A DNA stretch of 64,000 bases from an uncultured Chloroflexia bacterium. GTDB lineage: Bacteria > Chloroflexota > Limnocylindria > Limnocylindrales > CSP1-4. Below are positions 55,520 through 64,000 of the stretch, piece after piece (within the stretch, counting starts at the first letter, position 1; each line of letters opens with the position of its first letter). A program made the translations under genes and the position numbers. The stretch is taken from NCBI GenBank assembly GCA_963748235.1, contig CAVVHT010000009.1:1414756-1478755 (forward strand), read 5' to 3'. A model generated the notes under the pieces. The model did not search any database, was not told the origin of the DNA, and saw nothing but the letters and a program-made list of their open reading frames with translations.

Positions 55520-57064
55520 GTGGAGGGAAGCGCGCGGTTCGACTACCAGCCCTCGACATCGTTGCCTCCGCTGGCCTGGCTCGCGTCCATCGAGGCCGGA
55601 GTGGTCGAGGTCAGGTGCGGCAGCTCGGTGCGCTGCACGGAACGCGGTTTCGTCGAGAGTACGTGGGTCGGCGATCCCGACGTCGCCACGCTGCCGCGCT
55701 CGACGACCGTATTCGGGTCGGGCCTGGTTGACGATGGGGACGGTCTTGTCCTTGTTCCGCCCAGCCATCCACTTGAGCGGCTCTACGTTCATGGCACGGA
55801 CGGGCGCGTCAGCGCCTCCAACTCGCTCGTCTGGCTGCTCGAGGCGACCGGACTCGACCTCGATCCAGACACGTTGTATCCGCCGATCTTCGTGCGCGCA
55901 GCGGAAGGCATCCGCCACACGATCCTGGACGTGCCCACCACCGGGACGCCGCTCCAGGCCGTCGTCTACCACAACGTTCGCCTGGCCCCGGCCGGTGACC
56001 TTCGAATCGAGGAGCGGCCCCACGAGCGACCGTTCGACTCATATGCCGACTACCGAACACGGCTGGCTGAGGCGCTCAGCTCGGCCGTGGCCAACGCGCG
56101 CGGCTACGAGATGGTGGCGACCATCTCGTCGGGCTACGACAGCACGGCCGTTGCCGCCGTGGCGGCCGAGGTCGGCTGCCGCCGGGCGGTCACGTTCACC
56201 GTGAGCAAGCCCGTCGCAAGGGGCACGGCCGTCGACAGCGGCGAGGCGACTGCCGAGCGGCTGGGCATGGCCATCGAGAAGTTCGACCGGCTGTCCTACC
56301 TGGACCGTGCCGACCTGCCCGAGGCGGAATTCCTGGCGACGGGCATGACCGGCGAGGACGTGGTCATGATCGCCGCGGAGCGTTCGATCGCAGGCTCGAT
56401 CCTGCTGACCGGCTCTGAGGCGTACCGGCTCAAGGGCAATCCGTACCGACCCGGTCTGTACCGAGGCGACCTGTCGTCGTGCTCGCTGACCGAGCTGCGT
56501 CTGCGGACCGACTTCATCCACCTGCCACTGCTGTTCTTCGGCGCTTCCGAGCAGCCCAGCCTGATCGAGATCATCGATTCGGCCGAGATGAGGCCGTTCT
56601 CGGTGCCTGGTCTGTACGACAAGCCGATCCAGCGCCGAATCGCCGAGAACGCCGGCATTCCGCGCGGCACGTTCGCGACCATAAAGCGCCGCTCGAGCGC
56701 CTCGATCCACCGTGAGGGACTCGTGGCCATGTCCGAGGCGAGCGCCGCCTCGGTCCGCGACTTCGCCGCGCGGCACGGTGGCTCACTCGACCATCGCCGC
56801 CGCTTCACGATCAAGCGCCGCCACCGGCTGGTCCTGCGCAGTGCGCGACGACTCCGGCTCGATCGATTCACGTCCGGCCTTGCCGCGCGACGACGCTCGC
56901 TCATCCATTTCGAGCCCGACTTCGGCTCGCTTCTCTTCCGCTGGGCGGTCGAGACCTTGCGGCCCCGATACGGGGTCGAGCCGGACGCGGGTGAAGCGAC
57001 GGTACTTATGGGGCAATTGCCAGCCGCCGAGCGAGTAGCCGCCAGCATCTGCGATGGTCCCTAA
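55520..57064 (+). CDS. Asparagine-synthetase-like PP-loop ATP pyrophosphatase (putative glycan amidotransferase), start uncertain
   Basis: Track ORF 55433..57064. GTG 55520 avoids overlap with the divergent LLM start. PP-loop-like '[15 protein letters not shown]' follows a ~190-aa N-terminal domain. The first gene of the glycan cluster. Confidence 0.55.
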
Positions 57065-58052
57065 ACTGCGCCAGGTGACCAAGACTGCACTAATCACTGG
57101 CATTACCGGCCAGGACGGCTCCTATCTCGCCGAGCTGCTGATCGAAGAGGGCTACCGCGTCATCGGTATGACGCGGCGCTCGAGCACTGCGACGGATGAG
57201 CGCATCGCGCATCTCGTGAACAAGATCGAGATCGTCCAGGGCGACCTGCTCGATCAAGCGTCACTGGTCGAAGCGCTGCGCGACCTGCGCCCGGTCGAGG
57301 TCTACAACCTCGGCGCGCAGAGTTTCGTGCCGACCAGCTGGAACCAGCCGGTGCTGACCGGCGAGGTGACTGCCCTCGGCGTCACGCGACTGCTCGAGGC
57401 GATCCGCCAGGTCGACCCATCAATTCGCTTCTACCAGGCGTCGTCGTCGGAGATGTTCGGCAAAGTGCGCGAGACGCCGCAGGTCGAGACGACGCCCTTC
57501 CACCCGCGCAGCCCGTACGGCGTGGCCAAGACGTATGCCCACTACCTGACCGTCAACTACCGCGAGAGCTACGGCATGTATGCCGCGTCGGGGATCTGCT
57601 TCAACCACGAGTCGCCGCGCCGCGGGCGCGAGTTCGTGACGCGCAAGGTGACCGAGGGTGCGGCGCGCATCAAGCTCGGCCTCGCGAAAGAGCTGCGCAT
57701 GGGCAACCTCGACGCAGACCGCGACTGGGGCTTTGCCGGCGACTTCGTGCGCGCGATGTGGCTCATGCTCCAGCAGGACGAGGCGGCCGACTACGTGATC
57801 GCCACCGGCGAGGCACACACCGTGCGCGAGCTGTGCGACATCGCCTTCAGTCGCGTCGGGCTCAATTACAAGGACTACGTGGTGACCGACCCGGCATTCA
57901 TTCGCCCGGCCGAGGTCGACCGACTGCTCGGCGATCCAGCCAAGGCCAAGCGCGAGCTGGGCTGGGAGCCGAAAGTCACCTTCGACGAGCTGGTTGCGAT
58001 GATGGTCGACTCGGATCTTGAGCGCCAGCGCCGCAACGTTGCTGCCGCCTAG
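57054..58052 (+). CDS. gmd: GDP-mannose 4,6-dehydratase family SDR (possibly GDP-heptose 4,6-dehydratase)
   Basis: '[18 protein letters not shown]', 'SSSEMFG', '[12 protein letters not shown]', 'FNHESPRRG'. Confidence 0.9.
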
Positions 58053-58062
58053 CCACTCCCCG

Positions 58063-62379: not shown

Positions 62380-63315
62380 TCAGCGCCAGAGAACGGTCAG
62401 GTCGCGACCGAGCAGGCTTCCGAGGCGCTCAATGTCCGGCAGCAGCTCGGCCCGCAACGAAGCCGCTACCTGCGGGTCGAGCGGCGGACGCTTCTGCGGC
62501 CGAGAGTTAACTCGATCCCAGGCGCGACCGACCGTGGGTCGCGCGCGTGGCGGGATCACCGCTCGAGCCACCCTGATCACGCGCGGCGAAAGCAGCGCCT
62601 GCTGCACGCGCCAGCTGCGTCGTTCGGCGCCTGCGTTGACCACTTGGAAGCTCGGCCGGAAATCCGGATCAACTCGCAGAAACTCGAGCACCGAGCGGTA
62701 GGCACCGGCCGGATCGCGAATGAAGTCATCGAAGAGCACCACGTGGACCTGCTCGCGCCCAAACGTGTCGAAATAGCGCGCAACCTGCTCGCCGTACCGT
62801 CCGACCTCTCGATAGAACAGTGCCTTGATGTTGCGTGCCCGCGCCGGGATCCGACGTCCGGCTTTGCGGTCGGCTTCGGCATCGAGAGCGTCGGCGAAGT
62901 CGGCCAGGTCCTCCGAGCCAGCGTAAAGGCGTCGGCCGTGGAGCGAGTACAGCATCTGCACCGGATGGCGCAGCATGGCGATGATCCGCGCATCAGGGTT
63001 CGCGGCGTGAATGTTGGCTGAGGCTTCTCGGGAGTAGAGGTACCAGGTTGACGCCTCGCCCGTCAGTTGGTCCGTGCGCGCACCGTTGAACAGGGCCAGG
63101 TACGCATCGCGGTCGCGGGTGAACGTTATCGACTCGAGGTAGCTGCCCGAGTCGAGATCGGTCGCGAAGTACTGAGGTTCCTTGAGCGCCGAGTTGTGGA
63201 TCTCGGGATGATCGCCCAGGTAGTCGAACATGAAGGTGGTCCCCGATCGCGGAGCACCCACGATCAGATAATCCGGGTAGCGGACGCCCGGCTCCGCCCT
63301 CCCCTCCGCATTCAC
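62380..63315 (-). CDS. PAPS-dependent sulfotransferase
   Basis: 5'-PSB loop 'IVGAPRSGTTF' and 3'-PB 'IIAMLRHPVQMLYSLH'. 311 aa, cytoplasmic. Confidence 0.85.
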   Translation of the reverse strand: MNAEGRAEPGVRYPDYLIVGAPRSGTTFMFDYLGDHPEIHNSALKEPQYFATDLDSGSYLESITFTRDRDAYLALFNGARTDQLTGEASTWYLYSREASANIHAANPDARIIAMLRHPVQMLYSLHGRRLYAGSEDLADFADALDAEADRKAGRRIPARARNIKALFYREVGRYGEQVARYFDTFGREQVHVVLFDDFIRDPAGAYRSVLEFLRVDPDFRPSFQVVNAGAERRSWRVQQALLSPRVIRVARAVIPPRARPTVGRAWDRVNSRPQKRPPLDPQVAASLRAELLPDIERLGSLLGRDLTVLWR

Positions 63316-63355
63316 ACCGATATTGTGCCTTCAGGACGCAGAATGGTCGGACGAC

Positions 63356-64000
63356 TCAGCGTTCCTGGTAGCCCAAGTCGGGTCCAGCGCCACGGAATCC
63401 GTCTGTGACGCCGCCGATGAGAGTGCCGGCGTCGACGGCAGGAGAATCGGAGCCAAGCAGGAAATTGTCGCCAGCGGGGTCCACGAAGCGTGGGTCCGCG
63501 ACCATACCGTGGGCCTCGAAGCCGGTCCACGTACGGAACGTAGTCAGGCTGTTCGTTCCGCTGCCCATGACCGTCGCGAGATAGCCGGCGCCAGGCATCT
63601 GGTGAACAATGTTGTAGTCGACCACGACTGAGTCCGGCAGCGCGGTGTCGATGCCGTAGACCTTGCCGTGCGAGATCGAGATCACGTTGTTCACGATGCG
63701 CAGCCCGTCGATAGAGCCGCCGAAGCCGCCGAGATAGTGCGACAGAGCAAACACCCAGTACTGCATGCCGTGGAAGGTGTTGTTCGCGATCAGGGTGTTC
63801 GACGCACAACGCAGGACCATCCCCACCGTGCGGTCGGCCGTTGTATCGCCGTAGTTCAGGTTGCGCGTATATGAATTGCCGTTGCACGGAGTCCGGTTGG
63901 CATCAGTGCCGGTCTCCAGGACGTTGCGGTTATCCCAGGTGACGTTGTCGGTGATCTCCCAGTTGCTCGCGGCGTAGATTGAGAACGCGCCACCGTCCCA
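63356..64000 (-). CDS. Right-handed parallel beta-helix repeat protein (5' end outside window)
   Basis: The frame of track ORF 63356..63826 stays open to base 64000. Repeated 'N-x-I/V-x-x-N' rungs ('NTLIANNTFHG', 'LRIVNNVISIS', 'VVDYNIV'). C-terminal 'FVDPAGDNFLLGSDSPAVDAG'. Confidence 0.7.
   Translation of the reverse strand, partial: WDGGAFSIYAASNWEITDNVTWDNRNVLETGTDANRTPCNGNSYTRNLNYGDTTADRTVGMVLRCASNTLIANNTFHGMQYWVFALSHYLGGFGGSIDGLRIVNNVISISHGKVYGIDTALPDSVVVDYNIVHQMPGAGYLATVMGSGTNSLTTFRTWTGFEAHGMVADPRFVDPAGDNFLLGSDSPAVDAGTLIGGVTDGFRGAGPDLGYQER

Follow-up and report, generated by a model that had tools for sequence, protein, structure and literature searches.

A variable gene island predicted to specify a heptose-containing, probably sulfated glycan in an uncultured soil Limnocylindria-like Chloroflexota

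A 12-gene accessory locus of an uncultured soil Limnocylindria-like Chloroflexota appears, with a probability of roughly 0.6, to build a heptose-containing, probably sulfated cell-surface glycan. This reading is based on predicted gene functions. The host is a monoderm represented by a 3.0-Mb MAG that is 73% complete. The window is the whole 64,000-nucleotide stretch of DNA that was analysed, and the locus occupies positions 55.5-69.3 kb of the extended window. A preliminary description had proposed a glycan biosynthesis cluster of nine contiguous genes in the window. All nine genes were found where they had been placed, each named family was recovered by profile or fold search, and the family assignments bear out a role in glycan synthesis. 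The expectation that the cluster continues beyond 64 kb was also correct: it runs a further 5.3 kb, ending at ~69.3 kb in extended window coordinates, and gains the rest of a 748-residue beta-helix protein, an HddA kinase, a third GT4 (GT4c) and an AglJ/Dpm1-like GT2. A Kef antiporter gene, starting at 69439 in the same coordinates, marks the boundary. The locus is a real, fairly ordinary accessory gene cluster.

Features of the cluster. Coordinates are extended window positions; features beyond 64,000 lie outside the window.
Feature	Coordinates	Strand	Evidence and remarks
AsnB/beta-lactam-synthetase-fold PP-loop protein	55520..57064	+	514 aa from GTG 55520; AF2 and Foldseek
GDP-mannose 4,6-dehydratase (Gmd)	57054..58052	+	PF16363 E 6e-132; start overlaps PP-loop stop by 11 nt
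GmhA, sedoheptulose-7-phosphate isomerase	58063..58656	+	ATG 58063; SIS_2 E 1e-25
HddC-like short sugar-1-phosphate guanylyltransferase	58660..59373	-	NTP_transferase E 3e-36; convergent with GmhA
GT4 glycosyltransferase a (GT4a)	59454..60599	+	Glyco_transf_4, Glycos_transf_1
GT4 glycosyltransferase b (GT4b)	60596..61813	+	TTG 60596 overlaps GT4a stop (TTGA); alternative ATG 60608
P-loop protein, NMP-kinase fold, 187 aa	61806..62369	+	start overlaps GT4b stop (ATGGTTGA)
PAPS-type carbohydrate sulfotransferase	62380..63315	-	PF13469 54.5 bits, PF00685 39.4 bits, both above cut-off
Right-handed beta-helix protein, C-terminal part	63356..64000, gene to 65602 outside window	-	Beta_helix, NosD, DUF1565
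HddA, GHMP heptose-7-P kinase	66045-67070 (= L001:10801-11826), outside window	+	NF049969 E 5e-85, below cut-off
GT4c	67063-68247, outside window	+	profile search; overlaps HddA
AglJ/Dpm1-like GT2	68462-69286, outside window	+	AglJ model E 7e-28, below cut-off

Both strands are used. Among the nine genes in the window, those for the HddC-like protein, the sulfotransferase and the beta-helix protein lie on the minus strand, and the genes make up at least four transcription units in the window and five in the whole extended cluster. Four gene junctions overlap. The overlapping stop/start codons reported earlier for the window are real at PP-loop/Gmd, GT4a/GT4b and GT4b/P-loop. The longest open reading frames start at 55433 for the PP-loop gene, for which the database gene call (P0001) is also 514 residues, and at TTG 58018 for gmhA.

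By homology, GmhA, HddA and the HddC-like enzyme would account for three of the four reactions that convert sedoheptulose-7-phosphate to GDP-D-glycero-alpha-D-manno-heptose. This pathway consists of GmhA, HddA, GmhB and HddC, and examples include those of the Aneurinibacillus thermoaerophilus S-layer glycan, the Campylobacter jejuni capsule, the Burkholderia pseudomallei wcb cluster and M. tuberculosis Rv0112-Rv0115. GmhA matched the NCBIfam equivalogs at E 1e-58 and 194-197 bits, slightly short of their cut-offs (209 and 276), and is 78% identical to its orthologue in the congener G268. The HddC-like protein scored 156 bits with the NCBIfam HddC model and 203 bits with the Rv ManC model, both below cut-off; its best PDB matches were Y. 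pseudotuberculosis HddC structures 5xhw and 6jq8 (E 2e-36), with mannose-1-phosphate guanylyltransferases scoring equally. All of the top PDB matches to HddA were heptose kinases (E 1e-77 to 4e-67), the best being 3k85 and others including WcbL (4usk) and C. jejuni HddA (4n3o).

The preliminary description had listed both HddA and the heptose-1,7-bisphosphate phosphatase GmhB as missing from the window. For GmhB, the absence extends to the entire present copy of the cluster; HddA is encoded just outside, ~2 kb beyond the window edge. Elsewhere in the genome (MAG 73% complete), the best GmhB-like candidate was a divergent HAD gene at C9:918246-918899, with 42 bits (cut-off 84). In four congeners (G101, G415, G423 and G439), a GmhB-type HAD gene scoring above cut-off lies directly beside hddA. 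In this genus, 10 of the 13 genomes with GT4a also encode HddA, versus 0 of the 19 without it (Fisher p = 4e-6, ignoring phylogeny).

The cluster encodes four glycosyltransferases. Orthologues of GT4a were found in 20 of the 401 genomes of the family; 13 of these, the present one included, belong to the same genus, a patchy distribution among the 32 congeners sampled. GT4b adjoins GT4a in every relative compared, and the genes for GT2, GT4a and GT4b are mutually adjacent in other genera as well. Outside the genus, homologues of GT4a/b occur in genomes that lack HddA, so these two enzymes need not use heptose. GT4c is the best heptosyltransferase candidate because it is consistently fused to HddA or located next to it: the two genes overlap in the present copy and adjoin in G268 and G101, and only GmhB separates them in G423. 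The P-loop gene lies downstream of GT4b in 10 of 11 congeneric blocks. The sole weighty sequence match of its product was to NCBIfam PRK08118 (E 3e-12; 47 bits against a cut-off of 215), Pfam CoaE and AAA_28 being matched only at E >1e-3. Its AF2 model (pLDDT 77) resembled adenylate, shikimate and gluconate kinases in Foldseek (E ~1e-4).

The sulfotransferase carries the 5'-PSB motif GAPRSGTT and most closely matched PDB entry 3rnl (E 7e-43); heparan-sulfate 3-O-sulfotransferases and NDST were the next matches. It contains no transmembrane segment and is predicted to be cytoplasmic. Sulfation of the product, which had been raised as a possibility, is made plausible by a PAPS supply encoded at other sites in the genome: CysD and CysN at C9:1600326-1602592, and CysC at C9:1261010, beside three further sulfotransferases. 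The sulfotransferase gene is missing from 3 of the 11 related blocks (G101, G252 and G415), which suggests that sulfation is an optional decoration.

The adjacent genes are co-conserved: 11 congeneric genomes share, in synteny, a core block of GmhA–HddC–GT4a–GT4b–P-loop–(sulfotransferase)–beta-helix. The locus is a variable island between conserved flanks, an LLM oxidoreductase on one side and the Kef and GGDEF-EAL genes on the other. In one close relative the island spans 38 kb and includes genes for a Wzx flippase and a 12-TM protein. Strain-specific content between fixed flanking genes is also typical of Wzx/Wzy-dependent O-antigen and capsule loci; unlike these, the present copy lost or never had membrane components. 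As described earlier for the window, and now through 69.3 kb, the cluster contains no priming transferase, Wzx flippase or Wzy polymerase. At 55.5-69.3 kb, no membrane protein was predicted besides the beta-helix protein, all other products being soluble. The beta-helix protein is secreted or anchored, with an N-terminal hydrophobic anchor, a ~85-residue PT-rich linker and no other transmembrane segment. Priming and flipping, as well as polymerization or ligation, must therefore be provided in trans. In G268, the corresponding locus, bounded by the same flanking genes, itself encodes a Wzx flippase and a Wzy-like protein with 12 TM segments. Homologues of these (47% and 61% identical, respectively) lie ~900 kb from the cluster in the present genome, at C9:565-598 kb; together with a DUF1616 protein in that region, they are candidates for the missing functions. 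A Bac_transf gene is found at C9:1233808, and LCP and WecG genes occur elsewhere.

The PP-loop protein had been described as AsnB-like. Its AF2 model (pLDDT 83.5) best matched 1m1z, 1q19 and 1jgt in Foldseek (E ~3.5e-10, TM ~0.5), and then AsnB (1ct9). Like these beta-lactam synthetases, carbapenam synthetase and AsnB, and like lasso-peptide cyclases, it has two domains, an Ntn-like N-terminal domain and a PP-loop synthetase domain. Unlike the beta-lactam synthetase/AsnB group, it gave no Pfam match in the profile search, including to PF00733 (Asn_synthase), is only 14-16% identical to its fold partners, and has the loop SSGYDS, invariant among homologues, instead of the SGGxDS of AsnB. A weak NCBIfam match was to a lasso-type macrolactam cyclase. 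As in beta-lactam synthetase and CarA, there is no N-terminal Cys, either in this protein or in the 12 homologues inspected. Despite the matching fold, assignment as an AsnB class-II glutamine amidotransferase was therefore rejected on the basis of the missing Cys nucleophile, the lack of an Asn_synthase match and the altered loop. The protein probably adenylates a carboxylate and forms an amide without glutamine. The family comprises ~2,100 representative clusters, which either lack annotation or are labelled hypothetical, apart from one fusion named for its fatty-acid-hydroxylase domain. Its genes are found in glycan loci, frequently in tandem paralogous copies and frequently close to sulfotransferases. 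Of the genomes with the core block, only the present one and G268 have the PP-loop gene beside it; amidation, raised earlier as a possibility, is thus not a conserved property of the product. We infer that the PP-loop gene and gmd form a separate two-gene module at the edge of the island.

In the proposed mechanism, the soluble AglJ/Dpm1-like GT2 and the three soluble GT4s would build up an oligosaccharide at the membrane's inner face, with polyprenyl phosphate as the carrier. The NMP-kinase-fold protein, whose gene is coupled to that of GT4b, may add a phosphate or serve a nucleotide donor. The cytoplasmic sulfotransferase would O-sulfate the lipid-linked intermediate using PAPS from CysDN and CysC and, following export, the secreted beta-helix enzyme may trim or modify the polymer.

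The locus could alternatively be a mosaic in which three independent modules of a hypervariable island (PP-loop plus Gmd; GmhA/HddC/GT4a/GT4b/P-loop/sulfotransferase/beta-helix; and HddA/GT4c/GT2) feed different glycans. We consider this unlikely. The restricted pairing of the PP-loop gene with the core block, the five transcription units on two strands and the 20-27 kb that separate hddA from GT4a in most congeners are consistent with it, as are close relatives in which the island bounded by the conserved flanks consists solely of PP-loop–Gmd–Wzx (L004) or of two PP-loop genes and Gmd (L006). Against these stand the confinement of HddA to GT4a-positive congeners, the futility of GmhA and HddC without HddA, the identical genes flanking all versions, and G423, in which HddA–GmhB–GT4c–GmhA–HddC–GT4a–GT4b–P-loop form one contiguous run. 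A 6-deoxy-heptose glycan, as in B. pseudomallei CPS-I or Yersinia pseudotuberculosis O-antigen, would result if Gmd acted on GDP-heptose. DmhA and WcbK, which do so, are Gmd homologues, and in the present copy, as in 7 of 11 congeneric blocks, gmd immediately precedes gmhA. This product is nevertheless not favored and is distinctly improbable, given that Gmd appears to be a canonical GDP-mannose 4,6-dehydratase, that it persists beside the PP-loop gene in the L004 and L006 islands devoid of heptose genes, and that it is not beside the core block in four genomes. Gmd scored 427 bits with TIGR01472 (cut-off 415) and 448 bits with P. aeruginosa Gmd (1rpn), versus 115 bits with the C. jejuni GDP-heptose dehydratase (7us5). 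By homology, it would make GDP-4-keto-6-deoxymannose; tblastn found no DmhB/WcbJ-type 4-reductase or other partner for this product in the MAG (73% complete).

There is also a small chance that the glycan is not a free or wall-linked polysaccharide but is attached to protein, specifically to PT-rich linkers of the organism's numerous large secreted beta-helix proteins. The GT2 resembles AglJ and Dpm1, the cluster's own secreted protein has such a linker, and at least 15 secreted proteins of the genome share its N-terminal domain, many of them encoded near Wzx, DUF1616 and a GT2 paralogue. There is precedent in the sulfated N-glycans of Halobacterium, whose sulfotransferases are cluster-encoded (PMC11980604). 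However, a search of the genome (73% complete) revealed no STT3/AglB oligosaccharyltransferase, relatives encode the flippase and the Wzy-like protein within the locus, and the LCP and WecG genes point to wall-linked polymers. Finally, heptose nucleotide pathways feed septacidin- and hygromycin-type antibiotics in actinomycetes. That the product is a metabolite of this kind and not an envelope glycan seems very improbable: the cluster's lack of membrane proteins would fit, but it encodes four glycosyltransferases and a secreted beta-helix enzyme, has no PKS, NRPS, aminocyclitol or nucleoside-tailoring genes, and contains Wzx and polymerase-like genes in relatives.

We thus prefer a heptose-containing, probably sulfated surface glycan. 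The cluster resembles GDP-heptose systems in combining GmhA, a GHMP kinase of the HddA type and a short, HddC-like guanylyltransferase in one locus, and in having a Gmd homologue next to the heptose genes, an arrangement shared with the wcb and Rv0112 clusters. It differs in lacking GmhB and a 4-reductase, in its monoderm Chloroflexota host, and in joining the pathway to a sulfotransferase, an NMP-kinase-fold protein and a secreted beta-helix enzyme. PAPS-type sulfotransferase genes also lie among glycosyltransferase genes in the synechan xss cluster of Synechocystis (PMC8205485), in Vibrio sp. KMM 8419, which makes a sulfated CPS (PMC11641403), and in Halobacterium (Agl30/Agl31; PMC11980604); the enzymes are cytoplasmic and sulfation presumably precedes export. 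The present cluster, known from its genes, differs from these in its heptose sugar set, its phylum, the lack of Wzx/Wzy in this copy and the optional sulfation across congeners.

More tentatively, and with the odds against it, this soil Limnocylindria genus may possess a conserved module for a sulfated heptose polymer of undescribed chemistry, together with two new enzyme types: the NMP-kinase-fold protein translationally coupled to the GT4 pair and the large, unannotated AsnB-fold family. If so, the latter, with its tandem paralogues and neighboring sulfotransferases, would represent a new class of glycan-modifying amide synthetases.

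Nine genes were identified between 55.4 and 64.0 kb using the ORF listing and third-position GC analysis, in sequence of 67% GC. Profile searches bore out the families assigned to them in the preliminary description, the PP-loop protein being recognizable by fold search alone. The overlapping stop and start codons noted there were present at three in-window junctions: ATGGTCCCTAA between the PP-loop and Gmd genes, TTGA between the GT4a and GT4b genes, and ATGGTTGA between the GT4b and P-loop genes. As had also been anticipated, the cluster runs past 64 kb. Specifically, the remainder of the beta-helix gene is followed by genes for an HddA-type GHMP kinase, a third GT4 (GT4c), which overlaps HddA at ATGGCTGA, and a soluble AglJ/Dpm1-like GT2. 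Because the genes to the left of 55.4 kb belong to unrelated metabolism and those after GT2 encode a Kef-type antiporter, a GGDEF-EAL protein and an aldehyde dehydrogenase, the cluster was taken to comprise 12 genes at approximately 55.5-69.3 kb. Thus, HddA, initially reported as missing, lies just past the window, whereas a flippase and a polymerase are indeed absent from the whole cluster, and GmhB from this copy. The anchor of the beta-helix protein was the sole transmembrane segment in the 12 products. The metagenome-assembled genome (MAG) totals 3.04 Mb in 10 contigs, with an estimated completeness of 72.6%.

Features of the cluster and of other regions of the genome. Unprefixed positions are those of the window, extended past 64 kb; C9 is the contig.
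Feature	Position	Strand	Match or content
Window	C9:1414756-1478755		
PP-loop gene	55520-57064	+	
Gmd			PF16363, E 6e-132; TIGR01472, 427 bits vs cut-off 415
GmhA			SIS_2; GmhA equivalogs, E 1e-58
HddC-like gene		−	Short NTP_transferase; nearest models HddC and ManC
GT4a, GT4b			Two GT4 family enzymes by profile search
P-loop gene	61806-62369	+	Walker-A; weak kinase-like profile matches
Sulfotransferase gene		−	Exceeds cut-offs of PF13469 and PF00685
Beta-helix gene		−	Fragment inside window (63356-64000); completes beyond window edge
Promoter-like element, HddA	~65990-66030		TTGACG-17-TAGCGT
Promoter-like element, GT2	~68330-68370 (C9:1483085-1483125)		Sigma-70-like, TTGACT-17 nt-TAGGTT
Homologues of G268 extra genes	C9:565000-598700		660-aa protein (61% identical), Wzx (47%), DUF1616 protein, GT2 paralogue (70%), two beta-helix paralogues (58-63%)
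Divergent GmhB-like HAD	C9:918246-918899		CPH…CxCxKP loop
Second PP-loop copy	C9:1211011-1212542		46% identical
Third glycan locus	C9:1253000-1262000		
CysC	C9:1261010		
CysD, CysN	C9:1600326-1602592		

A promoter and terminator consensus scan returned nothing beyond shuffled expectation. The scan missed similar promoter-like elements upstream of GT2 and HddA. The former is kept in the congeneric genomes G268 and G101 and includes a direct repeat of CCTAAGTAC found nowhere else in the genome. Between 62000 and 66500, GC is reduced to 0.61-0.64, and third-position GC there is down at 0.74-0.77. The genes concerned, those of the P-loop protein, the sulfotransferase and the beta-helix protein, are nonetheless conserved across the genus.

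The nearest public loci were in MAGs of Chloroflexota, under the label Chloroflexia or Candidatus Limnocylindrales. Of 401 genomes sampled from the family, 20 had a GT4a orthologue, and 13 of these, including the present one, belonged to the same genus. Adjacent genes proved to be co-conserved when all cluster proteins were compared by tblastn with ~20 kb around each GT4a match. In 11 congeneric genomes, the recurring block was GmhA–HddC (opposite strand)–GT4a–GT4b–P-loop–sulfotransferase (opposite)–beta-helix (opposite). The P-loop gene was present in 10 of these blocks, HddC in nine and the sulfotransferase in eight (not in G101, G252 or G415). Gmd adjoined the block in seven genomes, and G268 alone had the PP-loop gene with it. 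Outside the genus, the only genes still found together were GT2, GT4a and GT4b. The locus has the same neighbors in relatives, with M55 peptidase, MoaD-MoaE fusion and LLM oxidoreductase genes on the left and Kef and GGDEF-EAL genes on the right, but the content between them differs: one island (locus L004) consists solely of PP-loop–Gmd–Wzx and another (L006) of two PP-loop paralogues and Gmd. The G268 island spans ~38 kb, with a DUF1616 gene between GT4b and the P-loop gene and, between the beta-helix gene and HddA, genes for a 631-aa protein with 12 TM-like segments, a Wzx flippase and very large beta-helix or PKD proteins.

Clusters for GDP-heptose have precedents, some with Gmd homologues. 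The HddA kinase matched NF049969 (E 5e-85) and the structurally characterized 3k85, WcbL and C. jejuni HddA (E 1e-77 to 4e-67). Orthologues 79-96% identical lay on the same contig as GT4a, 4-27 kb away, in eight of the 11 congeners searched besides this genome; in a ninth, G329, HddA was on a separate short contig. Overall, HddA occurred in 10 of 13 GT4a-positive versus 0 of 19 GT4a-negative genomes of the genus (Fisher p = 4e-6, not corrected for shared ancestry). A GmhB-type HAD phosphatase scoring above cut-off directly adjoined HddA in G101, G415, G423 and G439, and the order in G423 was HddA–GmhB–GT4c–GmhA–HddC–GT4a–GT4b–P-loop. Based on these arrangements, the full GDP-heptose pathway is part of this locus type, and the present copy has lost GmhB. 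Searches of this genome with TIGR00213 and TIGR01656 yielded no match above cut-off; a divergent GmhB-like HAD is encoded elsewhere on the contig. From its linkage to HddA, GT4c may be the heptosyltransferase.

The best solved relative of Gmd was P. aeruginosa Gmd (448 bits), versus 115 bits for C. jejuni GDP-heptose 4,6-dehydratase, and Gmd is kept in islands devoid of heptose genes. For both reasons, we read it as a probable GDP-mannose dehydratase. A tblastn search with the reductase adjoining Gmd in a relative revealed no Fcl-, Rmd- or DmhB-type reductase in this 72.6%-complete MAG.

The PP-loop protein had no Pfam matches, and profile searches against the PDB gave only marginal matches to NadE (E > 0.1). 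The informative search was that with its model (pLDDT 83.5, 28-sequence alignment), which retrieved beta-lactam synthetase and carbapenam synthetase (E ~3.5e-10, TM ~0.5), followed by AsnB, human ASNS and TsnB9. Neither the protein nor its homologues start with Met-Cys, and the PP-loop motif, SSGYDS, is invariant in the alignment. The protein is therefore predicted to be an AsnB-fold adenylating enzyme lacking glutaminase activity. At E ≤ 1e-3, the family comprises ~2,100 representative clusters. The members checked were unnamed or 'hypothetical' except for a fusion from Vicinamibacterales whose name comes from its fatty-acid-hydroxylase domain. This 975-aa MAG protein (P0231/P0268) carries a C-terminal sterol-desaturase/fatty-acid-hydroxylase domain, a hint that lipids or lipid-linked compounds are the substrates of some members. 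A sulfotransferase gene lay within 10 kb of family genes in six of nine loci examined; further neighbors were genes for GTs, LCP, WecG, Wzy_C and UDP-glucose dehydrogenase. Family genes frequently stand in tandem, three to five at a time (three in L011, five in L013, three in L048), and the arrays of L011 and L013 are immediately downstream of genes for a PotABCD-like ABC importer (SBP_bac_8, BPD_transp_1, ABC_tran+TOBE_2). The second copy in this genome is split over two frames by a frameshift or assembly error, in a glycan locus with a GT4, a fragmentary UDP-glucose/GDP-mannose dehydrogenase, a GT2 and two Wzx-like flippases. Its 502-aa neighbor, considered as another paralogue, is not one.

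The nearest solved relatives of the sulfotransferase were 3rnl (E 7e-43) and heparan-sulfate 3-O- and N-sulfotransferases. The genome lacks the ATP sulfurylase PF01747 and has CysD and CysN instead. CysC adjoins three more sulfotransferases, WecG and an O-antigen-ligase-like protein. PAPS synthesis is thus encoded in the genome, as judged by homology. In total, six or more sulfotransferases and an APS kinase are encoded in the 3 Mb, alongside LCP and WecG. The third glycan locus, which includes CysC, also encodes a large ArnT/PMT-like membrane protein and is syntenic with L012 of a congener; one of its three sulfotransferases is split by a frameshift at ~1259178-1259256. The P-loop protein model (pLDDT 77) weakly matched adenylate, shikimate and gluconate kinases (E ~1e-4). 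That this protein is itself an APS kinase is unlikely: it did not match PF01583, APS kinase was outside the top 50 fold matches, and the gene occurs in blocks without a sulfotransferase.

Homologues of the G268 extra genes occur in the present genome at C9:565-598 kb, ~900 kb from the cluster, which would account for a cluster without flippase or polymerase. Third-position GC in this ~33-kb region is 0.72-0.78, versus 0.82-0.88 elsewhere, and the 660-aa protein has 12 TM segments; a run of secreted beta-helix proteins of 737-1324 aa is also encoded. The beta-helix protein of the cluster (748 aa) consists of an N-terminal hydrophobic anchor, a ~180-aa domain, a PT-rich linker and the beta-helix. 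The ~180-aa domain (residues ~53-230), for which Pfam gave no match, is shared at 25-40% identity by 15 or more other large secreted proteins of the genome (contigs C9 and C10) and by several proteins at relatives' loci; it may be a surface-anchoring or glycan-binding module.

Together, the GDP-heptose genes, Gmd, the GT and sulfotransferase families and the PAPS supply, all assigned by homology, support a heptose-containing surface glycan built by a cytoplasmic assembly line. Assembly would proceed on a polyprenyl-phosphate carrier, with sulfation as an optional step and membrane steps supplied in trans; the secreted beta-helix enzyme would process the product after export. Here we infer the carrier, what is sulfated, what the P-loop and PP-loop proteins do, and the final acceptor, whether polysaccharide, wall or protein. 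Archaeal-type N-glycosylation is not supported because STT3/AglB is absent from the genome (MAG 72.6% complete).

Sulfotransferases within glycan clusters have been described for synechan (PMC8205485), a marine Vibrio CPS (PMC11641403) and Halobacterium Agl30/31 (PMC11980604). Indeed, every element has precedents, hypervariable polysaccharide islands included, and the annotation as an accessory polysaccharide locus, not a new kind of system, is well supported. The novelty lies in how the genes are combined, in the conservation of this combination across an uncultured Chloroflexota genus, and in two uncharacterized protein families. A literature search joining 'Limnocylindria' and 'sulfotransferase' found no paper. 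The Limnocylindria are Chloroflexota that abound in soil; hardly any have been cultured, and their envelope chemistry is unexplored. The many sulfotransferases, the APS kinase, the LCP and WecG genes and the genus-conserved heptose–sulfotransferase block point to sulfated surface glycans as a possible trait of the lineage. Were this confirmed, a monoderm soil phylum would join the short list of bacteria making sulfated glycans, and the locus would provide a genomic handle on two uncharacterized enzyme families.
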